Assembly (NCBI GenBank): GCA_041494885.1
Contig: JBGQBO010000012.1
Coordinates: 2,637 to 66,636, forward strand
Length of the DNA: 64,000 nucleotides
DNA from: Terriglobia bacterium
Lineage (GTDB): Bacteria > Acidobacteriota > Terriglobia > JAIQFV01
Direction: 5' to 3'
Part shown: piece after piece, positions 13,713 to 27,461 of the stretch
Position numbering within the stretch: the stretch's first letter is position 1
How the letters are laid out: each line of letters begins with the position of its first letter
Position numbers and translations under genes: made by a program
The notes under the pieces: model-generated
What the model was told of the DNA's origin: nothing
Databases searched by the model: none
Seen by the model: the letters and a program-made list of their open reading frames with translations, nothing else

Positions 13713-14882
13713 ATGTTGAATGACATCACGATCCTTGACCTTTCCCGGCACCTTCCGGGACCTTATGCCACTATGGTGCTGGGAGATTGGGGAGCAAAAG
13801 TCATCAAAATAGAAGAGCCGATGCTGGGGGATGCGGTTCGATGGACACCCCCCTTCGTGGAGGGGACATCAGCCCTTTTTCTCCAGTTGAACAGGAATAA
13901 GAAAGGGCTCACACTCAATCTGAAAACCCCCGAGGCAAGGGAGATACTGTTGAAGCTCTCCCGCGAGGCCGACGTCCTTGTGGAAAGCTTTCGTCCGGGG
14001 GTCGCGAGCCGGTTTGGAATCGATTATGAGACGCTGAAACAGCACAATCCGCGGCTGGTCTATTGCTCCATCTCAGGGTTCGGACAGACCGGTCCGTATC
14101 GCGATCGGGCTGGACATGACATCAATTACATTGCCCGCGCCGGACTGCTCGGATTGAACACGGATGCCCGCGGTATCCCCATTATCCCGCCCGTTCAAAT
14201 CGCCGACCTGGCCTCCGGCGCCATGCTTTGTCTTGCTGGGATTCTGATCGCCTTGCACGCGCGCCAGACCTCCGGCGAGGGAAAGTTTGTCGACGTATCG
14301 ATGCTGGAGGGGACCATGGCATTATTGCCGATCGCCCTCTCTCACTGGATGGCGGGGGAGCCGATGCGTGTGGGTGAAAAGACGGAGCTCACTGGCACCG
14401 TTCCCTTTTACAACGTGTACCAGACGGCCGATGGAAGGTTTCTGGCTCTGGGCGCGATCGAGCCTAAATTCTGGGAAAATTTTTGCAGGGCAATCCGCCG
14501 GCCCGAGTTGACCTCCCAGCAGTTTGCATCAGGAGCGGAGCGCGAGCGGGTGTTTCAGGAGGTCACTCAAACCCTGGCATCGCGGACGCTGGCCGAGTGG
14601 GTCGCAGTCTTCGAAGGACTTGATGTCTGCTGTGAACCAGTGGAATCTCTCGACGAAGTCCTGGCAAACCCGCACCTCCGGCATCGAGGCATGGTTCAGC
14701 AGGCTGCCCATCCCTCCGGGGGGGTCTTCAAACAATTGGGGACGGCGTTGAAGTTTTCAGATGTTGAGGCGCCTCCCTCTCAACCTGCCCCGAAGCTGGG
14801 GGAGCACACTGACGAAATTCTGTCCCAGTTGGGATATTCCAGATCAGAAATCTCAAATCTCAGGACCCAGGGGGCAATCTGA
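13713..14882 (+). CDS. CaiB/BaiF family III CoA-transferase, alpha-methylacyl-CoA racemase-like
   Basis: LPGPY, LNRNKK, AGHDINY, GAIEPKFW, APKLGEHT motifs. Confidence 0.85.
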   Translation: MLNDITILDLSRHLPGPYATMVLGDWGAKVIKIEEPMLGDAVRWTPPFVEGTSALFLQLNRNKKGLTLNLKTPEAREILLKLSREADVLVESFRPGVASRFGIDYETLKQHNPRLVYCSISGFGQTGPYRDRAGHDINYIARAGLLGLNTDARGIPIIPPVQIADLASGAMLCLAGILIALHARQTSGEGKFVDVSMLEGTMALLPIALSHWMAGEPMRVGEKTELTGTVPFYNVYQTADGRFLALGAIEPKFWENFCRAIRRPELTSQQFASGAERERVFQEVTQTLASRTLAEWVAVFEGLDVCCEPVESLDEVLANPHLRHRGMVQQAAHPSGGVFKQLGTALKFSDVEAPPSQPAPKLGEHTDEILSQLGYSRSEISNLRTQGAI

Positions 14883-17029
14883 TGCCCGCATTCAATCTCT
14901 CCGTTGACGAGAATCATATTGCCATTCTTCGTTTTGACCTTGAAGGCGAGAAGGTCAACAAACTCACCACCGAGGTCATTCGTGAGGCCGAAGAGGTTTT
15001 TGAGGAGATCCGGCATCGCTCTGACATCCGGGCGGTTGTCTTCATAAGCGGCAAGGAAGACAATTTCATCGCCGGTGCCGACATCCATGAATTCCTGAAG
15101 TTCGAATCTGCAGCCCAGGCTACGGAGGCCTCTCGTTACGGACAGAAGGCCCTGCAGAAGATCGCAGACATGAAGATCCCGGTCGTCGCCGCCATCCAGG
15201 GCGCCTGCCTCGGGGGCGGCATGGAGGTGGCGCTCGCCTGCCATTACCGGATTTGTACCGACGACAAGAAAACCCAGTTGGGACAGCCTGAGGTGCAGTT
15301 GGGCTTGCTGCCGGGAGCGGGTGGGACCCAGCGCTTGCCCTCACTTGTTGGGATTCAAAACGCCATTGAGGTTGCCACCAGCGGCCGCAATTACCGGCCA
15401 AAACAAGCGCTCAAGAAGGGGCTCGTTGACGAGGTGGTTCCCCGGCCCCTGCTCCTGAGCATCGCCGCAACTCGCGCCGGCGAACTCGCGGAAGGGAAAC
15501 TCATCCCCCCTCGCCATCTGCCCCGCGGACTGAAAGCGTGGGCACTTGAACGCAATCCCCTGGGACGCCGACTGCTCTTCCGCCAGGCCAAGAAAATTAT
15601 CCGGGAGAAGACGCATGGCCACTATCCCGCGCCCCTCAGTGCCCTCGAAGCCATCCGGGTGGGCGTCTCAGACGGACCTGCGAAAGGATTCCTGGCGGAA
15701 TCCAAGGGATTTGGCGACCTCGCCATGACCGGTGCCTGCCGCCATTTGATCCATCTCTTCTTTGCAACCACCGATGTGAAGAAGGATCCGGGTATCGATG
15801 ACTCTTCCATCAGGCCTCAACCGGTCGACCGGGTCGGCATTCTGGGCGCCGGATTCATGGGAGCGGGCATCGCCGCGGTCTCCTCCAGTGCCGGTCTGAG
15901 CGCTCGCTTGCGGGATGTCTCAGAGGAAGCCTGCCTGAAGGGACTCACGGCTTGTTACAAGGTATTCGAAGATCGCTTTCGTCGAAGATCAATCTCCAGG
16001 TTGGAACTCCAGGAATTAAAGGATCGCGTTTCGGCCACCTCCGAGTTCACCGGCTTTTCGACCTGTAATCTGACCATTGAGGCGGTCTTTGAAGACATTG
16101 AACTCAAGCACCAGGTGATCCGGGAGATCGAGCCGCATCTTCGGGACGACGCCGTCCTCGGTTCGAATACCTCTTCGATTGCGATCACCCGGCTTGCGGA
16201 AGCCTCGCGGCGGCCGGAGCAATTCATCGGGTTGCACTTCTTCTCTCCCGTTCACAAGATGCCTCTGTTGGAGATCATCGTGACTCGACAAACCTCCAAG
16301 CAGGCGATCGCCACCTCAGTCGAGTACGGAAAGAAAATCGGGAAGTTTCCCATTGTGGTTAACGACGGCGTGGGATTCTACACCTCCCGGATCCTGGCGC
16401 CGTATATGAACGAAGCTTCATTCATCCTGGAGGACGGTGCGGCCGTCGAGGCCTTGGACCACGCCATGGTCGATTTCGGTTTTCCAGTGGGGCCTATGAC
16501 CCTGCTGGATGAAGTCGGCATCGACGTGGCCGCGAAAGTGGGAAAAATCATGCTTGAGGCGTTTGGAGAGCGGCTGAAGCCTCCCTCCAGCATGGGGCAG
16601 TTGGTGAAGGACGCAAGGCTCGGACGCAAGAACAAGAAGGGGTTCTATCAGTACATCACCACCCGTCAGGGAGAAACCAAGAAAGCGGGAGTAGACCCGA
16701 CGATCTACGATCTGCTTCCCGGCGGAAGGAATCGAAAAACCATCGCCGTCAACGATGTCCAATTACGCCTCTCCATGGCGATGCTGAACGAATGCGCCCG
16801 TTGCCTGGAGGAAGGCATCCTGCGTTCTCCGCGAGACGGTGACATCGGCGCCGTGATGGGACTGGGTTTCCCGCCCTTCCGGGGGGGGCCTTTTCGATAT
16901 ATGGATTCTCTCGGGTTGGAGAATGTCGTCCGCCACCTGGACTCACTCCAGAAAAAATGGGGGGACCGCTTTAAGCCATCGGAAATGATCGTTCGGTTGG
17001 CGCAGGAGAATAAGAAGTTCTATTCATGA
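14882..17029 (+). CDS. fadJ: Fatty acid oxidation complex alpha subunit (enoyl-CoA hydratase / 3-hydroxyacyl-CoA dehydrogenase)
   Basis: [41 protein letters not shown]; translationally coupled to the upstream gene (TGATG). Confidence 0.92.
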
Positions 17030-17083
17030 GCCAAGTCCATTGATTCCGCCCGGTCCGCACCGTGGCTGGGTTATTGAATCGTT

Positions 17084-17164
17084 GGGGCGCACAGTCCGCC
17101 ATGGCGGACGTCCCACGCGGCACTGGAAACATCTAAACTCGGGGGGCGCACGACTGTGCGCCCC
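17084..17164. repeat. Two REP-like palindromes
   Basis: GGGGCGCACAGTCCGCCATGGCGGACGTCCC and GGGGCGCACGACTGTGCGCCCC. Confidence 0.6.
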
Positions 17165-17190
17165 ACAAGGCCGAAACCAAGGATTCCCTC

Positions 17191-19041
17191 ATGCCCTCCA
17201 AAAACCTCTTCACAGAGAATGATGACCTCCAATTTCACTTCCACCATGGCATCGACTGGAACCCGTTGATTGCCGCCTGGCACGATGAGGGGGAAGGCCC
17301 GCTCAACGCCGGCGAAACGAAGCAGCAGTATGAGGAAGCATTAAGTTTGGTCGGTGAATTCTGTGCCCGGGAAGTGGCGCCTCGCGCCGCCGGAATCGAC
17401 CAGGCGGGGATTCGATGGAAAGATGGAGATGTTATCCTTCCGGACGGTCTCGTTACGAATCTGGAGGCGGCAAAACAACTGGGCATCCTTGCGGTCAGTC
17501 TTCCCAAGGCACTCGGAGGCTGGAACTTTCCTTATACCGTGAATGCCATGATGGTCGAAATGATCTCAACCGCGTGTCCCAACACGCTCAGTTTCCTCGC
17601 TTTTTATCAAAGCCCCGCCATGATGCTGCTTCGCTTTGCGAGCGATGAGATCAAGGAACGATATATCCCTAAATTGGCGAGCGGTGAGATTTCGGGTTCT
17701 GTCGCCATGACGGAACCGGAAGCCGGGAGCGATGTAGGCGCGCTGACAACGGCGGCGGTCGATGCAGGGGATGGGGCCTGGCGCATCACCGGGCGGAAGC
17801 AGTTCATCACCAACGGGTGTGGAGACATCGCGCTGGTCCTGACCCGCACGGATCCCCGCTCGAAAGGACTGGAAGGACTCTCCATGCATCTGGTCCCCCG
17901 CTATATCGAGCGCGAAGGCCAGCGCGTCAGAAATTTCGAAATTGGAAAACCGGAACACAAGATGTCGCTTCGTGGCTCGCCGACCCTGGAACAGTACTTT
18001 GATCACTCCATCGGATATCTGATCGGAGAAGCGGGCAAGGGCTGGGAGTATATCCTGTCCTTTATGAACGAGGCGCGGGTTGCGGTCGGAATCCAGGCCC
18101 TTGGGATCTGTCAGTCCGCCTACCGCAAGGCCTATGACTATGCCCGGCAGCGCCAACAAATGGGTAAGGCCATAGCCCAGCACGAACTCGTGGCCGACAT
18201 GCTGTTGGACATGGATTTGGAAATCCGGGCGCTGCGCGCCATGATTTACGAGGCCACACAGACCGAGGACCGGCGGGTCGGATTGCAGAAACTCCTGGCA
18301 GAAGGAAAGTTGAGTGAGGCCGAGATCAAGACGGTGAAGCCATTGATCAAGAAACTGGAACATTCATCTCGCGAGCTGACCCCGTTGATCAAGTACTGGG
18401 GAGCGGAGAAGGCGGTCGAGATCAGCCGGAAGGCCCTTCAAATTCATGGGGGCTATGGAATTTTCGAATCGTATGAAGTGGAGCGGCATTTACGCAACTC
18501 CGTCATCACGGCGATCTATGAAGGAACGTCCCAAATTCAGGCCCTCATGGCGCTCAAAGACCAGCTCAACTGGGCCATGTCCCGTCCCAAAGACTTTGTG
18601 AGTGCCCGTCTGGCTCTAAAGGCGGCCAAGTCAAGGGCCGGCGCGGCCACGAAGAACCTGCTGGCAATCCGGGACGAAATCTCAAGCGCGATCCAATATC
18701 TGGTCCTGGATATCCTTCGTGAGAAAAAGAAAGGGGCCAAGGGATCCGGGAAGGACTTAGGTTGGATCCAAATGATCCGGCAAGGAAAGTCGGCGTTTTC
18801 AAGGGATGATCTGAAACACTTCAGTTATGCCCTGCTGAGTGCAGAGCGGCTCGCCACGATGTTTTCTCTCTATCATGGCGCTCGTTTGCTGAAGGCCCTG
18901 GCGAATCATACGGACGATGAAAAACGGACGACGCTGGCGGATCGCTACCTTCGAAGAAGACGGGCCGTGGTCGAATCCCTGGGTGGACAAATCCGAAGCG
19001 GGGACCGAAGCACGCTGGAATACATCCAGGAAAATTTGTAG
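17191..19041 (+). CDS. Acyl-CoA dehydrogenase (long type with C-terminal extension)
   Basis: AMTEPEAGSD, GRKQFIT, LQIHGGYG, IYEGTSQIQ motifs. Confidence 0.92.
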   Translation: MPSKNLFTENDDLQFHFHHGIDWNPLIAAWHDEGEGPLNAGETKQQYEEALSLVGEFCAREVAPRAAGIDQAGIRWKDGDVILPDGLVTNLEAAKQLGILAVSLPKALGGWNFPYTVNAMMVEMISTACPNTLSFLAFYQSPAMMLLRFASDEIKERYIPKLASGEISGSVAMTEPEAGSDVGALTTAAVDAGDGAWRITGRKQFITNGCGDIALVLTRTDPRSKGLEGLSMHLVPRYIEREGQRVRNFEIGKPEHKMSLRGSPTLEQYFDHSIGYLIGEAGKGWEYILSFMNEARVAVGIQALGICQSAYRKAYDYARQRQQMGKAIAQHELVADMLLDMDLEIRALRAMIYEATQTEDRRVGLQKLLAEGKLSEAEIKTVKPLIKKLEHSSRELTPLIKYWGAEKAVEISRKALQIHGGYGIFESYEVERHLRNSVITAIYEGTSQIQALMALKDQLNWAMSRPKDFVSARLALKAAKSRAGAATKNLLAIRDEISSAIQYLVLDILREKKKGAKGSGKDLGWIQMIRQGKSAFSRDDLKHFSYALLSAERLATMFSLYHGARLLKALANHTDDEKRTTLADRYLRRRRAVVESLGGQIRSGDRSTLEYIQENL

Positions 19042-19063: not shown

Positions 19064-19798
19064 TTAAAGATCCTGTAAAAACGGATTGGACCTCCGTTCG
19101 CGGCCGATCGTCGTCGCGGGTCCGTGGCCGGGATAGACGAGGGTGGAGTCATCGTATTTCCGTAGAATCCGGGCCAACGACTCCATGATCGTTTCGAATG
19201 AGCCTCCCCACAGATCCGTCCGTCCGATGGACGAGAGAAACAGCGTGTCACCCGTGAAGAGGACTTGCTTTGCGCTCTCGTTCCCATTCCGGGAGGAAAC
19301 AGGTTCCATCCCCGAACCCGCCCTGCTGTTAACAGGACGTATGCCCCTCTTCTCTCCGATACCCGTGAATTCTGTTTCAAACGTCAAACTCCCCGGGGTG
19401 TGTCCAGGCGTGTGCATCACCTCACAAACAATCGATCCGCACCGTATGACGTCACCGGTTTCGAGGTAGGCATCCACCTTTGACGTCGGTGGTTCGGGGA
19501 TGCCGATCATGGCCGCCTGCCTCTTCAGATTTTCGAGAAGAGGCAGATCCGCCTTGTGGAGGCAAACCTCGGCCCCCGTATGGTCGCGCAGTTCGGCGTT
19601 CGCCCCGACATGATCGATGTGAGTATGCGTATTGAATATCTTGCGAAGCTTGAGGTCGTGTTGCTTCAGCACCGCCAGGATGCGCTCCACCTCATCGCCG
19701 GGATCAATGACGATTGCTTCGCGCGTCGCCTCATCGCCCAGGATGGCACAGTTGCATTGCAGCAGACCGACTGGAAAGGTTTCGAAGATCATTTTCAA
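19064..19798 (-). CDS. MBL-fold metallo-hydrolase (glyoxalase II-like)
   Basis: THTHIDH, PGHTPG, TGDTLF, PGHG; carries a roughly 25-aa low-complexity insertion. Confidence 0.9.
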   Translation of the reverse strand: MKMIFETFPVGLLQCNCAILGDEATREAIVIDPGDEVERILAVLKQHDLKLRKIFNTHTHIDHVGANAELRDHTGAEVCLHKADLPLLENLKRQAAMIGIPEPPTSKVDAYLETGDVIRCGSIVCEVMHTPGHTPGSLTFETEFTGIGEKRGIRPVNSRAGSGMEPVSSRNGNESAKQVLFTGDTLFLSSIGRTDLWGGSFETIMESLARILRKYDDSTLVYPGHGPATTIGRERRSNPFLQDL

Positions 19799-20054
19799 GA
19801 CTCCAAGAGATTCAGATTCTTTTGGGACACGGACTCACGCAGACAAACGCGGATCGCATATAGAAATAATGGAGTCTTACCTTTCTTGGATTCAACCTTA
19901 GGGGATACAGCCCCCTTTCTGATTAGCACCGGCGCATAATGGAGTGCTGTCATCTCACAGGGTCGATCCATACAGGGAATTATAGCATGGACGCCACCCC
20001 ATCAATTCGCAATCTCACGTTGACGTAAGCTGTAACTCAAAGATAATTCACCAC

Positions 20055-20082
20055 TTGACACCACACGTGGGCGTTGTAGAAT
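20055..20082 (+). promoter_or_regulatory. Sigma70-type promoter of the tes locus
   Basis: TTGACA (20055-20060), 16 nt spacer, TAGAAT (20077-20082). Confidence 0.65.
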
Positions 20083-20088
20083 TCAGTC

Positions 20089-20199
20089 CTCGGTCGGGCC
20101 CTGCCCCATCGGGGCCTATGAGACGATGTCTCGAGACCAAACCGCAAGCCAACTTTCGGCTGGCTCTAGGCGTAAAACGCCACGTAGTTGCCGACCGGG
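20089..20199 (+). ncRNA. Candidate structured 5' leader RNA (multi-stem junction)
   Basis: Closing stem CGGTCGG/CCGACCG encloses four hairpins; no match to a riboswitch family I recognise. Confidence 0.4.
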
Positions 20200-20333
20200 C
20201 GGCTGCCGGACCTGAACGAATTCCAGTCTTCCAGAGTCTCAGGGGGAGAAGACTTCTTCAATCCAGGTTAGATCGAGCGGTCCATCAGGGAGGCGTTTCA
20301 AATCCAGCAGAATATGAATTCGAGGAGGAGTAA

Positions 20334-21989
20334 GTGAGTACACAGACAATTCAGGACCCATCCCAGGCTGTCAACCTGCCGTCGGCAGAGGAAAAAGAGG
20401 ATCGGTTTCAATTTGTACAGCATCAGGTCATACAGCCCAAAACGACCTACACGGGCGCGCGCATTGACCCGCCCCACGTCGGACTGCCGAAGGTGACGCA
20501 ATCCCTTTGCCCGGAATGCACGAAGCTGATAGATGCCCTGGTCTTCGAAGAAGACGGCAAGGTCATGATGGAAAAGACCTGCCCTGAGCACGGATACGTG
20601 AAGGACGTCTGTTATTCAGACGCAAAGATGTACTTGAAAATGGAGCGGTGGCACTTTGGCGACAACCGGGGGGTTTCCAATCCTGCAATCCCCGACGCCA
20701 CGCGATGCCCGGAGCAGTGCGGCTTGTGCTCGATGCACACCTCCCACACCGGTCTGGCCAACGTCGACCTGACGAACCGCTGCAATTTGACATGCCCAGT
20801 CTGCTTCGCCAATGCCAATGCCTCGGGCTACCTCTACGAACCCTCGTTAGAGCACATCCGGAAGATGCTGCAGGCGCTGCGGAACGAGCGGCCCGTGGCC
20901 TGCCGGGTGGTCCAGTTTTCCGGCGGCGAACCCACCCTGCATCCCCGATTCATCGAGATCCTCCGGATGGCGGCCGAGATGGGCTTCTCTCATCTCCAGG
21001 CGGCCACCAACGGCATTAAGTTCCTCGACCTGGATTTCGCTATGGCGGCCAAGGAGGCCGGCCTGCACACCCTCTATCTTCAGTTCGACGGGGTTTGCGA
21101 CGACATCTACAAACGAACCCGCGGTGAATCCCTGTATGAGCAAAAACTCAAGGTCATCGAAAACTGCCGCAAGGCCGGGTTGAAGATCTGCTTTGTCCCC
21201 ACTATTGTGAAGGGATTGAACGATCATCAGATTGGCGACATCGTCCGGCTCGCTATCGAAAACGTGGATTGTACCAGCGCTATCAGTTTCCAGCCGGTCA
21301 CTTTTACCGGGCGCATTGCCAAGAGGGAACGGGAAGCCAAGCGCTTTACGATGACGGACGTAGCGCGGTGCGTCGAGGAGCAGACCGGACTGGCCGAACG
21401 CTACGAGGATTGGTTCCCACTGTCCTGTGTCACCCCCTTTTCAAAACTCCTCAGCGCCGTCAAAGGCGAAGAGACGACGCAGTTGAGCAGTCATCCTCAT
21501 TGTTCCATCGGCACTTATCTCTTTGTGAGTGAAGACCGCAAGGAAGCTGTGCCGATCACGCGGTTTGTCGACATCGGCGCCATGCTCCAGGCCATCGACG
21601 GCATTTCCCGCGAAACGAGTCGTGCGACGTTCAAGTTCTTCACCAAGATCAAGGTGTGGCAATCTTTGCAGAAGTACTTCAAACCGGAGCGCGCGCCCAA
21701 AGGGTTGACCTTTGCCAAGTTCCTGCAAACCCTGCAGGGTATGACCGACAAGAAATACGGCCGCGGAGGGAACGACGGCACGTTCACTTACCGGACGTTG
21801 ATGGTCGCCGGGATGCATTTCATGGATTCCTATAATTACGACGTCGAGCGCGTGAAGCGGTGCATCATTCATTACGCCGCGCCGAACGGCCTGATCTACC
21901 CCTTCTGCGCATATAATTCCGGACCCACGTTCCGGGAAATGATCGAGAAGAAGTACTCGGTGCCATTCAAAAAGAACGGTTCACACTAG
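20334..21989 (+). CDS. tes: Radical SAM tetraether lipid synthase (Tes / MJ0619 family) homolog
   Basis: SLCPEC..KTCPEHG rubredoxin-like site, CPEQCGLCSMH auxiliary cluster, NRCNLTCPVCFANA radical SAM motif, HPHC and GMHFMDSYNYDVERVKRCIIHY..PFCAYN C-terminal cluster region. GTG start with GAGGAG RBS. Confidence 0.85.
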   Translation: MSTQTIQDPSQAVNLPSAEEKEDRFQFVQHQVIQPKTTYTGARIDPPHVGLPKVTQSLCPECTKLIDALVFEEDGKVMMEKTCPEHGYVKDVCYSDAKMYLKMERWHFGDNRGVSNPAIPDATRCPEQCGLCSMHTSHTGLANVDLTNRCNLTCPVCFANANASGYLYEPSLEHIRKMLQALRNERPVACRVVQFSGGEPTLHPRFIEILRMAAEMGFSHLQAATNGIKFLDLDFAMAAKEAGLHTLYLQFDGVCDDIYKRTRGESLYEQKLKVIENCRKAGLKICFVPTIVKGLNDHQIGDIVRLAIENVDCTSAISFQPVTFTGRIAKREREAKRFTMTDVARCVEEQTGLAERYEDWFPLSCVTPFSKLLSAVKGEETTQLSSHPHCSIGTYLFVSEDRKEAVPITRFVDIGAMLQAIDGISRETSRATFKFFTKIKVWQSLQKYFKPERAPKGLTFAKFLQTLQGMTDKKYGRGGNDGTFTYRTLMVAGMHFMDSYNYDVERVKRCIIHYAAPNGLIYPFCAYNSGPTFREMIEKKYSVPFKKNGSH

Positions 21990-22101
21990 AAAGTAATTTC
22001 CGCGAGGCCGGCTGCCGGCCGGCCTTGCGCGACAGAGACTCGGGCTTCCCCTTGAGAAAATCCCAATTCAGGAAACAACGTAGAGGAAGGATTTTCCCGA
22101 T

Positions 22102-23742
22102 ATGTATACACGTGATGGCGCTCGCATCAAGACAGCTAAGCGACCGAATGTTCCTAGGCGAACCCAGCCGGCGCCTCCCACCCCCCATGACTTCGAACGG
22201 TACCTCAGCCATCCCCTGACCCGCAAAATCCTGAAGCGGCTGACGACGGGTCCTAATGGGCGCACGCCCATGGAGAAGATCTTCTATTCCTACCGGAACC
22301 CTGACGCGTCCCTTTCCGAAAGGATCAAGTACGCCCCCGTGCACAAGGCCATGGATTATTTTGTCGCCCGGACGCACACATCGCCGGAGCAGGCCGTGGA
22401 GAGAGTCTTTCATCACTGGCCGACGGTTCGAACGCTTCTGAACACCGCGCGTTCCGTGGCGACCCACGGTTTGCTGACCCCCCAGCGGTTTATCGCTCCC
22501 CTGCTGGTCGTCTGGAACATTACCAACGCCTGCAACCTCTCATGCAAACACTGCTACCAGGACGCGATTCACAAGCGCGGTACCGACGAACTGACCCGGG
22601 CTGAAAAATTGAACGTGGTCGACCAGCTTTCGGAGAACCTCGTGCCTCTGATCGCCCTAGCGGGCGGCGAGCCCCTGGTGGACCCCGATGTTTGGGCTGT
22701 TCTGGAGCGGGCTCAACAGAAGTTCGTGTACGCGACGCTCGCCACCAATGGAACCCTGCTGACTCCCCGCAACTGTGAGCGCCTGGCCTCCCTGGGCGTC
22801 AAATACGTCGAAGTCTCCCTGGACTCCATCGATCCGGCCGTTCATGACGGCTTTCGTCAGATGAAGGGCGCCTGGGCCCGGTCCATTGAGGGAATCAAGA
22901 ACGTGAATGCGGCGGGCATGCGATGCGGGATCGCCTGCTGCTTCACCCGGGATACGGTGGAACAGGCGCAGGAGATGATTAACCTGGCCATTTCCCTGAG
23001 CGCCAACACCTTCGTTCATTTCAATTTCATCCCCGTGGGACGGGGTGTGGAAATGGCCCACGAAGATATGTCCCCGTCGCAACGCGAAGGCCTCTTGCGA
23101 CTCCTTCTAAAAACATTGAACGAAGGAAAGATCAGTGTCATGTCGACAGCGCCTCAATTCGGGCGGGCTTGCCTGATGTTCGGAGATCCGGAGGGGATGA
23201 TGGCGATGGGACACGGCGGATCCGGCCGGGGCCAGCAGGCACGCGTCGTCTCCAAGTACATCGGCGGCTGCGGGGCCCACCGCTGTTATTGTTCGATCCA
23301 ACCCAACGGCCAGGTCAACCCGTGCGTCTATATGCCTACCCGGACCATCGGCGACCTCCGAACGACTCCCTTCACAGAAATCTGGAACCAGCCGCTGGAA
23401 GCGATCCTGAGTGACCGGGACGATCGGGGCGATCACTGCGGGGTCTGCGACTATCGCTTCTTCTGTGGAGGATGCCGCGCGCGGGCCGAGAGCTACACGG
23501 GGGACGTCCAGGCGGGTGATCCGGGATGCATTTACAATGAGCATATGTGGAACGAGATCCTTTCTCGCCGCCAGCATGAACTGAATACCCTGAACGACCT
23601 CACCGCCCGAAGGGTGGGTGTCGGTGGCCGGAGCTCAGGAACTTCTATATTGCCGACTGAATCGCGCCATACTCCCGATCCAGGATCGCCGGCGGCCGAC
23701 TCGAATGCGCCCGCCGAGTTAGGCTCGCACCCTTCTGCATGA
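22102..23742 (+). CDS. Radical SAM/SPASM protein, candidate GMGT synthase (Gms)-like
   Basis: Helical N-terminal extension, PQRFIAPLLVVWNITNACNLSCKHCY, SPASM GGCGAHRCY..PC..CGVC.YRFFCGGCRARA..DPGC; directly downstream of tes. The radical SAM/SPASM family call is secure; the Gms call is inferred. Confidence 0.7.
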   Translation: MYTRDGARIKTAKRPNVPRRTQPAPPTPHDFERYLSHPLTRKILKRLTTGPNGRTPMEKIFYSYRNPDASLSERIKYAPVHKAMDYFVARTHTSPEQAVERVFHHWPTVRTLLNTARSVATHGLLTPQRFIAPLLVVWNITNACNLSCKHCYQDAIHKRGTDELTRAEKLNVVDQLSENLVPLIALAGGEPLVDPDVWAVLERAQQKFVYATLATNGTLLTPRNCERLASLGVKYVEVSLDSIDPAVHDGFRQMKGAWARSIEGIKNVNAAGMRCGIACCFTRDTVEQAQEMINLAISLSANTFVHFNFIPVGRGVEMAHEDMSPSQREGLLRLLLKTLNEGKISVMSTAPQFGRACLMFGDPEGMMAMGHGGSGRGQQARVVSKYIGGCGAHRCYCSIQPNGQVNPCVYMPTRTIGDLRTTPFTEIWNQPLEAILSDRDDRGDHCGVCDYRFFCGGCRARAESYTGDVQAGDPGCIYNEHMWNEILSRRQHELNTLNDLTARRVGVGGRSSGTSILPTESRHTPDPGSPAADSNAPAELGSHPSA

Positions 23743-23853
23743 AGCACGGGAACCCATGAGTCCCCCTCTTCATGCGAATTCACTTGCGATGTGAATGCCT
23801 CCCCTCCTGCCTAACCAATGCGACGTTTTGACCGGGTGCCGCAGATCACCTGT

Positions 23854-23882
23854 TTGACAAACGCCTTTCCTCTCCCTAACAT
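23854..23882 (+). promoter_or_regulatory. Sigma70-type promoter
   Basis: TTGACA (23854-23859), 17 nt spacer, TAACAT (23877-23882). Confidence 0.6.
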
Positions 23883-23899
23883 CAAACCTCCGGCTGTCT

Positions 23900-24061
23900 G
23901 GGCATCCGCGGTCGCGGACAGTGCGCCCTGGTGGCGGGTCTCATATGAACAACTCCTGTGAGAATGAGAATCAACTCAACAACCGATTGAGACGTAACCA
24001 ATTCTAAAGCGCTCTATATTCCGATCACCCCCGGGCAGACTGTCCGCCACCGCGGATGCCC
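23900..24061. repeat. Long imperfect inverted repeat (REPIN-like)
   Basis: GGCATCCGCGGTCGCGGACAGTGCGCCC (23901-23928) pairs with GGGCAGACTGTCCGCCACCGCGGATGCC (24033-24060). Confidence 0.75.
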
Positions 24062-24083
24062 CGCGGGTTCTCCTGCAACTTAA

Positions 24084-25184
24084 ATGATTTCTCCAAAGTC
24101 AATCCTCATCATTCGCTGGGCGCGCCTGGGTGATGTGATTCTGTCGGAGCCCGCCGTGCGGTTGTGTCGCCAGATTTTTCCCGATGCCCGCATCAGTTAC
24201 CTCACTGGACACCGGTGCGCGCCGGTTCTGACCATGTTCCCGGATGTGGATGAGATTATTGCTTTGGATCGGGTGGCCCTGAGGGATGGAAACAAGATAT
24301 CGTCCATTGGAAGGATCTTTCGATTTGCCAATGAACTCCGAAACCGGAAATTCGATCTGGCCATTGACCTGATCGGATTTCGCGAATCCGAACTGCTCGT
24401 CTTTTGGAGCGGCGCCCGCTGGCGGGTCGGCCTGAAGCGATTTCAAAAACCCTACTGGAGATTCTGCTTTAATCTGCCTCCCGTGGCCGAGGACAAATCT
24501 CTTCTTGTCGCTGAAATGTTCCATACCGTGGTTCAGAGCCTTGCCTCCAACCCCTCTTTTCGACGGGCAATCGGTGGACATTCATCCGAATCCGCCGCGG
24601 ATGAATTTCCACTTTCTCCAATCGGGGACTGCATCATCCCCCGCCTCGAAGTGACGACTGCCGCTGAAGCAAAGGCGTGCGAATTCTGGATCCAACAGGG
24701 CCTGGATCAACTGGATGAGGTATACGGATTTCAGATGTCGGCCTCGGGGGAAATTCGAACGTGGCCGGTGGAGCGATTCATCGATCTGGCGGCTCGCATC
24801 GTCATCCATGCCCGGGGAAAAAACCGCCGTGCGGGGTTTGTAAACTTTTCTGCCGCTCACGAAGCCTCATTGTGCGAGGAGATGACCCGGGACATGCAGT
24901 CGGCCGGAAACTTCGCGGTGGCAGCCATCGGTCCACAGGATCGAGCCGAAGCGATTCCCCAGCTCGCCGGGTTGTTGAAACGCTGCACCGCGGTCGTGAG
25001 CAACGACACCGGACCCATGCATTTGAGTGCAGCCGTCGGCACCCCGACGCTGGGTCTGTTCAGTATCGGGGTCACGGAACATTATCGGCCTTTGGGTGCA
25101 AAGTGCGGCTTTCTTAAGAAAAACCCCCTCTCGCAACTTACAGTGGAAGAGGTCTGGAAAGAATTGGTCCGCATGTTGGAATGA
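24084..25184 (+). CDS. Glycosyltransferase family 9 (ADP-heptose:LPS heptosyltransferase-like)
   Basis: ILIIRWARLGDVIL, RTWP.ERF and SNDTGPMHLSAAVGTPTLGLF motifs. Confidence 0.9.
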   Translation: MISPKSILIIRWARLGDVILSEPAVRLCRQIFPDARISYLTGHRCAPVLTMFPDVDEIIALDRVALRDGNKISSIGRIFRFANELRNRKFDLAIDLIGFRESELLVFWSGARWRVGLKRFQKPYWRFCFNLPPVAEDKSLLVAEMFHTVVQSLASNPSFRRAIGGHSSESAADEFPLSPIGDCIIPRLEVTTAAEAKACEFWIQQGLDQLDEVYGFQMSASGEIRTWPVERFIDLAARIVIHARGKNRRAGFVNFSAAHEASLCEEMTRDMQSAGNFAVAAIGPQDRAEAIPQLAGLLKRCTAVVSNDTGPMHLSAAVGTPTLGLFSIGVTEHYRPLGAKCGFLKKNPLSQLTVEEVWKELVRMLE

Positions 25185-25364
25185 ACCGTGATGCCCTCCT
25201 CAGCCCGGCTGGGTCGCTGTCACTTGTGGTATAATTAAATCCTCCGTGCGGAGATTTTTGGGTTCGCCGAGCGAACTGTGAGAACGGGACGAGGTCCGTC
25301 GCAGACTCGCCAGCCCAGGTCTCCCAATACATTTCGAAGTCAAGTTAGGGGCCCGCGTCATTGA

Positions 25365-27461
<2,097 letters not shown>

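Follow-up and report, generated by a model that had tools for sequence, protein, structure and literature searches.

Branched GMGTs (brGMGTs) occur in nature and require an enzyme that forms their H-bridge; we know of no producer or enzyme that has been demonstrated for them. The closest described systems are the archaeal GMGT synthases (Gms). Li et al. 2024 (PMC11186832) assayed the M. okinawensis enzyme (MoGms) in vitro and reported archaeal Gms only in obligate anaerobes, and Garcia et al. 2024 (PMC11214058) expressed those of T. guaymasensis, T. celer and P. furiosus in T. kodakarensis. The latter study also listed 193 bacterial Gms homologues, including 31 from Acidobacteria and 71 from Planctomycetes, described bacterial homologues in gene clusters with tes or mss, and put forward brGMGT synthesis as their role. 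In the Black Sea, Gms-homologue abundance in Planctomycetota tracked brGMGT-1a (PMC11868695). Our literature search found no bacterial Gms homologue that had been tested. Here, we analysed a window of 64,000 nucleotides from a Terriglobia bacterium (contig JBGQBO010000012.1), in which a tes gene is followed by a gms-like gene. The first-pass annotation had interpreted this pair as a bacterial lipid module and presented it as novel. While the interpretation is supported by our analyses, it is not new, as tes-linked acidobacterial and planctomycete Gms homologues had already been reported and read in the same way (Garcia et al. 2024, PMC11214058). Since the concept itself and the family both date from that 2024 publication, what the locus offers is a further candidate together with its context.

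The source genome is 98.9% complete and belongs to the Acidobacteriota (Terriglobia-like). The tes-like ORF begins with GTG, just 3' of a GGAGGAG Shine-Dalgarno sequence, and the gms-like ORF (protein label P0002) begins with ATG on the same strand, after a spacer of exactly 112 bp (21990-22101). The pair is preceded by genes for a CoA-transferase, FadJ, an acyl-CoA dehydrogenase and an MBL-fold hydrolase, and followed by genes for a GT9 glycosyltransferase, ThiC, a DinB-family protein and a PEP-mutase-family protein. PqqD, heme, PQQ or mycofactocin genes were not found among the annotated neighbours on either side, and the 112-bp and 341-bp spacers contain no credible precursor-peptide ORF. 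The ORF coordinates, neighbour domains and spacer ORFs thus agree with the earlier description of a 546-aa radical SAM/SPASM gene lying 112 bp after tes on the same strand, with none of these genes nearby. The tes-gms junction is not an assembly artefact, as it is bridged by independent metagenome contigs, one of 10,387 bp (run X2) spanning 20000-24300 with 40 differences and free of gaps, and one of 913 bp (run X3) spanning 21954-22866 with 0 differences.

Table 1 Features of the tes-gms-like locus (positions in the window).
Feature	Position	Strand	Basis
Two overlapping sigma-70-like promoter matches, ~250 nt upstream of tes start	20020..20082	+	scores 10/12 and 11/12
tes, tetraether lipid synthase homologue, 551 aa, Zn-ribbon + radical SAM	20334..21989	+	NF045702, PF23545, PF04055
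GC-rich hairpin in tes-gms spacer, no T tract after it	21999..22032	+	15-pair stem
gms-like, radical SAM/SPASM protein of the GMGT synthase family, 546 aa	22102..23742	+	homology, tree, NCBIfam scores
N-terminal all-helical cap domain, residues 30-122, separates Gms from AhbD	22189..22467	+	AlphaFold2 model, hhalign
CX3CX2C motif (C144, C148, C151), predicted radical SAM [4Fe-4S] cluster	22531..22554	+	Cys in 42/42 aligned homologues
SPASM region with predicted auxiliary-cluster cysteines (C390, C397, C408, C446, C449, C455, C458, C476)	23269..23529	+	PF13186, conservation counts
Pro/Ser-rich C-terminal tail, residues 508-546, predicted disordered, not common to relatives	23623..23739	+	pLDDT

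By family membership, the first gene encodes a Tes orthologue, as judged from its sequence. Its product scored 591.3 bits against NF045702 (equivalog cut-off 450), combines PF23545 with PF04055, and matched the structure of M. jannaschii Tes (GDGT-MAS, MJ0619; PDB 7TOL) with 461.5 bits and an E-value of 3e-137 over residues 50-546, so that the likeness extends to the full-length match and the Zn-ribbon plus radical SAM layout. It differs from M. jannaschii Tes in its bacterial host, and its substrate and product in bacteria are putative. Two longer Tes-like paralogues of 694 and 672 aa are encoded in the same genome, with scores of 322 and 309 bits that lie under the NF045702 cut-off.

Comparisons with MoGms, with curated families and in phylogenetic trees place the second gene product in the Gms family. 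Li et al. 2024 delimited Gms relative to MoGms by e < 1e-50, identity > 30% and length > 420 aa (PMC11186832); P0002, with its 546 aa, lies within these thresholds, as a single pairwise BLASTP comparison, not an nr search, with MoGms (reference P0312; UniRef100_F8AME3 / WP_013867022.1) gave 32% identity over 462 aa (residues 31-482 versus 10-465) and an E-value of 1e-76. When MoGms was used as a query against the source genome, the gms-like gene was the best match (245.6 bits; runner-up 59.6), and it is the sole such gene in the genome (next best match 37.9 bits). The NCBIfam scores of P0002 (AhbD 234.5, NirJ2 234.9 and TIGR04053 212.9 bits) resemble the pattern of the characterised MoGms (244.1, 228.8 and 247.2 bits), whereas four true AhbD proteins reached 568-597 bits against the TIGR04545 cut-off of 500.

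Garcia et al. 2024 recognised Gms by phylogenetic separation from an AhbD outgroup, by a clade shared with experimentally confirmed Gms, and by an N-terminal extension absent from AhbD, the COG4001 / six-helix cap domain of ~100 aa (PMC11214058). In a careful maximum-likelihood tree of 46 rows, 12 Ahb/NirJ-like rows were separated with a support of 100/99 from 34 rows including MoGms and P0002. Within these, P0002 grouped in an 11-row clade of Acidobacteriota and Planctomycetota (100/98), itself inside an 18-row bacterial clade (95/98). A quick tree of 77 rows showed the same topology, with an SH-aLRT of 99 for the Ahb-side split. MoGms and P0002 hence fall on the same side of the AhbD split, on a Gms-side backbone that is poorly resolved (supports 43-56). 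Both trees are without the Thermococcales enzymes (Tg-, Tc- and Pf-Gms), and confirmed Gms is represented by MoGms; among eight outgroup rows scanned with NCBIfam, four were AhbD above cut-off. In line with the first-pass annotation, the SPASM protein falls away from AhbD/AhbC/NirJ-like proteins, on the side of MoGms, and has the Gms-specific N-terminal domain.

Because the Radical_SAM domain begins at residue 139, roughly 130 residues lie ahead of the radical SAM core, matching the N-terminal extension of about 130 aa noted before; the motif quoted along with it is present as well ('...HGLLTPQRFIAPLLVVWNITNACNLSCKHCY...'). SPASM (PF13186) covers residues 390-449. In the AlphaFold2 model (pLDDT 88.3 and pTM 0.85 for the whole protein), the cap consists of 7 DSSP helices with a pLDDT of about 87-95. 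Aligning bacterial with archaeal Gms N-termini, rather than with the COG4001 model, by hhalign gave 98.75% (E 1.5e-16, 106 columns, 14% identity), compared to 0.19% for the reversed control, and an archaeal-only N-terminal HMM had the gms-like ORF as its sole match among 44,948 genome ORFs, at a marginal E-value of 0.077. On this profile evidence, the N-terminal helical domain is homologous to that of archaeal Gms.

The cysteines C144, C148 and C151 align with C123, C127 and C130 of MoGms. Further downstream, C390, C408, C455, C458 and C476 are cysteines in 42/42 homologues, followed by C446 (40/42), C449 (39/42), C357 (32/42) and C397 (31/42). C372 of MoGms, an AuxI cysteine that was mutated there, aligns to Ala392, a position with cysteine in 3 of the 42 homologues; instead, those 31 homologues, P0002 among them, carry a cysteine in the C397 column. 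The cysteine ligands required for a radical SAM cluster and for each of two auxiliary clusters are accordingly available, with a putative ligand-to-cluster assignment. The pLDDT is below 50 over residues 508-546, and the matches of relatives to P0002 stop near residue 486-497. Overall, the protein has the same four parts as archaeal Gms, namely a helical domain at the N-terminus, a radical SAM barrel, a bridging region and a SPASM domain, and likewise conserves the CX3CX2C and SPASM cysteines and occurs in a genome with tes. It differs in its bacterial host that encodes oxygen reductases, a presumed fatty-acid-derived substrate, a putative activity and a very divergent N-terminal domain, as well as in having ~20 extra N-terminal residues and the disordered tail of ~40 residues.

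To place the pair in a wider context, we compared 39 dereplicated bacterial gms-like loci with at least 2.5 kb of upstream sequence. A Tes-family gene was located directly upstream of the gms-like gene in eight loci and was not in the locus in the remaining 31; in four of the 39, this upstream partner was the longer Tes-like paralogue below the NCBIfam cut-off and not Tes proper. A Tes-family gene was the only recurrent neighbour. The tes-then-gms order on the same strand was shared by a relative (L139; 93%/83% identical), by L124 (76%/62%), which has tes and gms as the sole genes in common with the window, by L142, and by two planctomycete contigs (L102, L111). Full-length gms-like orthologues were detected in 11 of 150 other Acidobacteriota genomes (454-631 bits), while the next class of matches covered the core only and reached at most 193 bits. 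Tes above cut-off was present in 11/11 genomes with an orthologue versus 17/139 without, counts drawn from just three families besides that of the window, in which kin are not independent. In none of these 11 genomes was tes adjacent or nearby, and in one (G017) the genes were 2.77 Mb apart. Genome co-occurrence is therefore strict, whereas adjacency is patchy and the exception, so that the linkage to tes, whose conservation the first-pass annotation had set as a check, is conserved only in part. In the genome studied here, which has the predicted capacity for membrane-spanning lipids, tes lies directly upstream of the gms-like gene. The bacterial homologues of Garcia et al. 2024 (PMC11214058) agree with this locus in phyla, tes linkage and proposed brGMGT role; relative to the set as described there, our sample adds that adjacency is a minority arrangement and that a second type of partner, the Tes-like paralogue, exists.

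Since both genes lie on the same strand, 112 bp apart and with no intrinsic terminator between them, they probably form one transcript. A promoter scan upstream of tes returned 3 sites versus a shuffle mean of 2.0, a weak consensus match only, and found no promoter-like site within the spacer. As described before, the spacer holds a GC hairpin without a U tract: its stem includes one bulge and closes on a 3-nt loop, the 121-nt hairpin stretch has a z-score of -2.64 with 1 of 200 shuffles folding equally well, no T run lies 3' of the hairpin, and a terminator scan of the 112 bp returned no site. The family assignments could be right and the tandem still a lineage-specific juxtaposition, with the genes transcribed separately and the hairpin acting as a terminator, processing site or stabiliser. 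Such an arrangement would fit the stable hairpin and the fact that the majority of bacterial gms-like genes do not adjoin tes, but we consider it distinctly unlikely given the missing T tract, the lack of a promoter-like site in the spacer, and the recurrence of the tes-then-gms order in distant lineages.

On balance, we favour the reading of the locus as a two-gene lipid module, in which Tes and a bacterial member of the Gms family make H-shaped brGMGT. Tes, as a radical SAM enzyme, would join the ends of two lipid tails, resulting in a membrane-spanning lipid. The gms-like protein is built from a helical cap at its N-terminus, presumably the part that holds the lipid, a radical SAM barrel with the SAM-cleaving cluster, and a SPASM domain predicted to carry two auxiliary [4Fe-4S] clusters. 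On the model of archaeal Gms, it would first remove hydrogen from one alkyl chain of the Tes-made, brGDGT-type tetraether and park the resulting radical on an auxiliary cluster; the second chain would then be activated and a C-C bridge formed between the chains, yielding an H-shaped brGMGT 2 Da lighter.

A Gms-family enzyme might also modify the tails by a different C-C bond and never form the brGMGT H-bridge, for instance by closing a ring within the molecule, coupling tail to tail a second time, or bridging chains in tetraester or mixed ether/ester lipids. The first-pass annotation, too, had allowed for 'another tail modification', and the bacterial proteins form a clade of their own (95/98) with no more than 32-43% identity to the archaeal ones, their substrate chains are chemically unlike biphytanes, and an uncharacterised Tes-like paralogue replaces Tes as partner in 4/39 loci. 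We nevertheless regard it as somewhat unlikely, as architecture, N-terminal cap and cluster ligands are all Gms-type, natural brGMGTs need such an enzyme, the Black Sea abundances point the same way, and no data favour any particular alternative product. Much less probable, and disfavoured by the present data, is a tetrapyrrole enzyme of the AhbD/NirJ type, such as heme b synthase or a relative, with tes as a chance neighbour. NirJ2 and AhbD are indeed the best NCBIfam matches (~235 bits) and the nearest curated families, with a common radical SAM and SPASM core (~30-35% identity over residues 130-480), and Garcia et al. 2024 (PMC11214058) noted 36% identity between archaeal Gms and the AhbD of M. 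barkeri. The scores, however, are less than half of the 500-bit cut-offs and equal to those of proven Gms, AhbD and AhbC/NirJ lack the N-terminal cap, and the AhbD/AhbC/NirJ-like rows split off at 100/99. Moreover, the Ahb pathway partners are missing from the genome while ferrochelatase is present: PF17805 siroheme-decarboxylase (AhbA/B) had 0 matches in the 98.9%-complete genome with archaeal controls positive, and the search for AhbC found as its best match the gms-like gene itself (177 bits versus a cut-off of 650). Membership in AhbD heme b synthase (TIGR04545) was rejected on its 234.5 bits and the absent partners.

SPASM enzymes mostly modify peptides, and the fold of P0002 is similar to SuiB, PqqE and SkfB, so that a peptide (RiPP) or cofactor maturase of the PqqE or MftC type with an unrecognised substrate could be envisaged. 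Structurally, the model comes closest to the peptide cross-linking enzyme SuiB (PDB 5V1T; E 2.2e-17, TM 0.55/0.67), yet the two are 16% identical, and where SuiB binds its peptide substrate with an RRE domain, the gms-like protein has the helical cap. We rate a maturase as highly improbable, because a PqqD/RRE domain is absent from the protein and its neighbours, the two spacers contain no credible precursor ORF, and the sole recurrent neighbour is a Tes-family gene. PqqE, MftC and sactisynthase membership was likewise rejected, as maturase models scored at most 134 bits, far under their cut-offs, with no PqqD domain and no credible small ORF nearby. The same SuiB template (5V1T) served Li et al. 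2024 to place the MoGms clusters (PMC11186832).

Several observations run against the brGMGT reading. The presumed substrate chain is fatty-acid-derived and not isoprenoid. Three homologues of heme-copper oxidase subunit I are encoded in the host genome, and such oxygen reductases contrast with the report of archaeal Gms only in obligate anaerobes (Li et al. 2024, PMC11186832). The exceptional tes adjacency, the four loci with a Tes-like paralogue as partner, the narrow family basis of the co-occurrence counts, Ala392 in place of MoGms C372, the marginal archaeal N-terminal HMM and the weak tree backbone belong here as well. Because there are two Tes-family partners, Tes proper and the longer acidobacterial Tes-like paralogue, and the host has oxygen reductases, it is conceivable, though in our view rather unlikely, that bacterial Gms-clade enzymes are not all H-bridge synthases and that some carry out another type of C-C closure on tetraethers derived from fatty acids, e.g. 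ring closure or coupling. We know of no bacterial enzyme for such a reaction. If true, the Tes-like paralogue would represent a second, uncharacterised tetraether route.

For the preferred brGMGT module, the locus contributes the contrast between rare tes adjacency and strict genome co-occurrence, the Tes-like paralogue as an alternative partner in sister loci, and the oxygen reductases of the host. As brGMGTs and brGDGTs serve as proxies for palaeoclimate and redox state, this compact tes-gms pair, whose acidobacterial source genome is near-complete, would be a convenient co-expression construct for the brGMGT question.

In the host genome (5.53 Mb, completeness 98.9%), the gene for the Tes protein P0001 (gene 1) lies 112 bp ahead of the gene for the Gms-like radical SAM/SPASM protein P0002 (gene 2). 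ORF calls and spacer folding confirmed this arrangement as described by the first-pass annotation, with the SPASM gene on the same strand as tes and a 15-pair GC hairpin in the spacer that no T run follows. A site scan of the spacer found no terminator-like or promoter-like sites. Contigs from two sequencing runs confirm the tes-gms junction: one of 10,387 bp from run X2 spanned 20000–24300 without gaps and with 40 differences, and one of 913 bp from run X3 spanned 21954–22866 with 0 differences. The runs listed as containing DNA of the locus were mostly sediment metagenomes, and none of those listed contained its RNA; the nearest database protein, at 96% identity, is labelled as a Terriglobia MAG, and the named relatives in our tree are Acidobacteriota. 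Just upstream on the same strand (window 13713–19041) are genes for fatty-acid beta-oxidation (a family III CoA-transferase, FadJ and a 616-aa acyl-CoA dehydrogenase), whose synteny extends to the close relative L139 and not to other gms loci. An Rfam scan of 19700–25600 returned nothing significant; a weak TPP riboswitch match at 25448–25562 (22.8 bits, E 0.37) stayed under the gathering score and lies across the GTG listed as the thiC start (25473). Since the ThiC family match covers the protein only from residue 60 onwards, the gene probably starts further downstream.

Features of the tes-gms locus and related genes of the host genome (G000; C, contig; positions without a contig refer to the window, C12:2637-66636)
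Feature	Position	Strand	Evidence or remark
Gene 1, tes (P0001), 551 aa	20334-21989	+	ORF
Gene 2, gms-like (P0002), 546 aa	22102-23742	+	ORF
GC hairpin in tes-gms spacer	21999-22032		z -2.64
Two promoter-like matches	20020-20082		count barely exceeds shuffles
Tes-like paralogue (L002), 694 aa	C20:3608-5167		outside window
Tes-like paralogue (L003), 672 aa	C11:25242-26777		outside window
Heme-copper oxidase subunit I (PF00115) homologue	C41:37381-38823		489 bits
Heme-copper oxidase subunit I (PF00115) homologue	C2:203641-204969		488 bits
Heme-copper oxidase subunit I (PF00115) homologue	C10:83311-84642		196 bits

P0001 combines a Zn-ribbon with a radical SAM domain, scored 591.3 bits on the NF045702 model 'tetraether lipid synthase Tes' (cut-off 450) and aligned over residues 50–546 with the crystallised M. 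jannaschii GDGT-MAS (461.5 bits, E 3e-137). Both longer Tes-like paralogues keep the Zn-ribbon and radical SAM layout and score below the same cut-off (322 and 309 bits); the copy on contig C20 is followed by a 431-aa radical SAM gene without any NCBIfam family match. NF045702 matched at E<=1e-60 in 93 of 151 Acidobacteriota genomes and exceeded the cut-off in only 29, and, as judged from sequence, the Tes-like paralogue type is widespread in this sample. PF06050, searched in place of a model for PlsA/Ger-type ether-lipid enzymes, was uninformative: it matched two ordinary dehydratase-type ORFs of 436–444 aa, and the T. maritima control was negative.

P0002 contains a Radical_SAM domain (139–295) and a SPASM domain (390–449) and has no paralogue in the genome (next match, 37.9 bits). 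The biochemically characterised Methanothermococcus okinawensis GMGT synthase MoGms (P0312), which converts GDGT-0 to GMGT-0 in vivo and in vitro (PMC11186832), was recovered by a search from an archaeal relative and identified by its UniRef name (UniRef100_F8AME3, WP_013867022.1). The two proteins share 32% identity over 462 residues (E 1e-76); the alignment, which opens at P0002 residue 31 and MoGms residue 10, therefore covers the N-terminal domain. Reciprocally, gene 2 was the best match of MoGms in the host genome (245.6 bits; next, 59.6). This reciprocity, together with a tree split from Ahb/NirJ-like rows, upheld the original Gms-like call, and P0002 is very probably a member of the Gms family.

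The reading of P0002 as a heme-pathway enzyme of the Ahb type draws on its best NCBIfam scores, NirJ2 (234.9 bits) and AhbD (234.5 bits), neither of which reached the cut-offs of 500; P0002 scored below cut-off on every NCBIfam model. MoGms itself is equally sub-threshold (AhbD 244.1, NirJ2 228.8), whereas four true AhbD proteins scored 568–597 bits; a label such as 'NirJ2/AhbD-like' thus points to the lack of a Gms model rather than to membership. Moreover, the PF17805 siroheme-decarboxylase domain (archaeal controls positive) and AhbC are absent from the genome, and ferrochelatase is present. P0002 is very unlikely to be a peptide maturase, no family model having scored above cut-off. The earlier statement that precursor peptide and PqqD are missing held, in that we found no PqqD/RRE domain and no credible small ORF nearby. 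Membership in the Gms family thus remained the preferred assignment.

Gms has been defined partly by an N-terminal extension of ~100 aa (COG4001) that is missing from AhbD (Garcia et al., PMC11214058). When an HMM of 24 archaeal N-terminal sequences was run on 44,948 six-frame ORFs of the host genome, the sole match was the gene 2 ORF (residues 37–129), at only E 0.077. Profile-profile comparison of 28 bacterial with 24 archaeal N-termini gave 98.75% probability (E 1.5e-16, 106 columns), compared with 0.19% for the reversed control. In an AlphaFold2 model built from a 42-row alignment (pLDDT 88.3, pTM 0.85), residues 30–122 form seven DSSP helices; the radical SAM barrel comes next, then a bridging segment and SPASM, and residues 508–546 are disordered. 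The model's best PDB match was SuiB, also the template of Li et al. (PMC11186832).

For phylogeny, 74 of the 171 homologue loci L028–L198, selected for a spread of identity levels and of named taxa (97 were left out), were combined with P0002, MoGms and an M. vulcanius homologue. MoGms served as the anchor; the Thermococcales Gms tested by Garcia et al. was not in the set, and a search of genome contigs yielded no Thermococcales among the 80 stretches kept from at least 600 matches listed. A quick tree of these 77 rows separated 14 Ahb/NirJ-like rows from the 63 others (SH-aLRT 99), and a careful tree of a 46-row subset reproduced the split (100/99). There, P0002 fell within an 11-row clade of Acidobacteriota and Planctomycetota (100/98), itself part of a bacterial clade of 18 rows (95/98); between the archaeal groups, backbone support was poor (43–56). 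Five metagenome loci (L187, L189, L192, L194 and L198) formed a tight clade of 405–416-aa proteins without the N-terminal cap domain, which nested on the Gms side of the quick tree (own support 100) on a long stem (0.96); L189 scored 261 bits for NirJ2 and 247 for AhbD, both below cut-off.

Two further observations concern individual homologues. The gms-like protein of L077, a record titled Candidatus Xenobia bacterium, is near-identical to that of metagenome locus L120 and nests among Acidobacteriota sequences; the contig may be mis-binned or reflect recent transfer. L163 (2520–5537) and L160 carry open frames of 1005 aa or more with the Gms-like protein at the end and no Pfam domains in the first ~600 residues, probably because the start was set too far upstream in GC-rich DNA and not through fusion.

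Cysteine conservation was assessed in 42 homologues. C144, C148, C151, C390, C408, C455, C458 and C476 were Cys in all 42, C446 in 40 and C449 in 39. Among the MoGms cysteines mutated by Li et al. (PMC11186832), C370 and C438 align with C390 and C455 of P0002. In contrast, MoGms C372 corresponds to Ala392, a column with Cys in only 3 of 42; P0002 and 30 others instead carry Cys at the C397 column.

Among 150 other Acidobacteriota genomes, a full-length gms orthologue (454–631 bits) occurred in 11, the next class of matches reaching at most 193 bits over the core only. Tes exceeded its cut-off in 11 of 11 orthologue-bearing genomes versus 17 of 139 without, although these 11 are not independent since they represent only three families, with eight genomes from one, in which every sampled genome has both genes. 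In none was tes near gms (another contig in ten, 2.77 Mb away in G017). Adjacency was scored starting from the 74 fetched loci that matched P0002 with 360 bits or more and also covered its N-terminus. After dereplication at 95% identity, 58 remained; the 39 whose upstream sequence extended for 2.5 kb or more were retained and the other 19 dropped, among them L102 and L148, both with tes upstream. In 4/39 (L111, L124, L139, L142) Tes proper was the immediate upstream gene, in the same orientation, and in another 4/39 (L077, L083, L120, L123) this place was taken by a longer Tes-like paralogue, 60–62% identical to the host C20 copy; the remaining 31 lacked a Tes-family gene. The pair is therefore recurrent rather than the rule, whereas co-occurrence at the genome level was strict in our sample. 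The tes-SPASM linkage noted at the outset accordingly stood as a recurrent arrangement, with a Tes-family gene upstream in 8/39, and did not extend to the majority of loci.

In a sister subclade 59–61% identical to P0002 (L077, L083, L120 and L123, also L122, L125, L126, L140 and L146), the gms-like gene directly follows the C20-type Tes-like paralogue in place of Tes proper. L124 unites a divergent Tes-like gene, tes and gms. Five archaeal loci (L047–L049, L052, L056) had tes within a few kb. ORF clustering of 41 bacterial loci and the window, muddied by long antisense ORFs, recovered only the Tes-family neighbour as recurrent. L139 has the entire upstream neighbourhood in common with the window and L124 tes and gms alone; by tblastn of window proteins against all loci, flanks were common only to L139, and the downstream GT9 gene was not conserved beside gms.

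Garcia et al. (PMC11214058) reported 1,149 Gms sequences, 193 of them bacterial (31 from Acidobacteria, 71 from Planctomycetes), with tes and/or mss in 90% of those bacterial genomes and gms clustered with tes or mss, and suggested that bacterial homologues may make H-shaped branched tetraethers (brGMGTs). PMC11868695 repeats this proposal, connects brGMGT-1a in the Black Sea with homologues from planctomycetes, and quotes m/z 1020 against 1022 as an example of the 2-Da difference from the tetraether. A 2026 review describes archaeal Gms enzymes only, and no experiment on a bacterial Gms was found in the literature searched. Our analyses support the interpretation of a bacterial tes-gms module; its novelty did not survive, the concept having been in print since 2024. 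Homology and genomic context moderately favour a role in which P0002 would cross-link both chains of a branched tetraether made by Tes, yielding a brGMGT.

To this picture, our analysis makes modest additions: tes is seldom adjacent to gms, its place in sister loci is taken by a Tes-like gene, and a cap-less clade lies inside the Gms side. A further addition is the presence of three heme-copper oxidase homologues in a Gms-bearing bacterium, because of which this host, in contrast to the archaeal Gms hosts described as obligate anaerobes (Li et al. 2024, PMC11186832), is probably not an obligate anaerobe.
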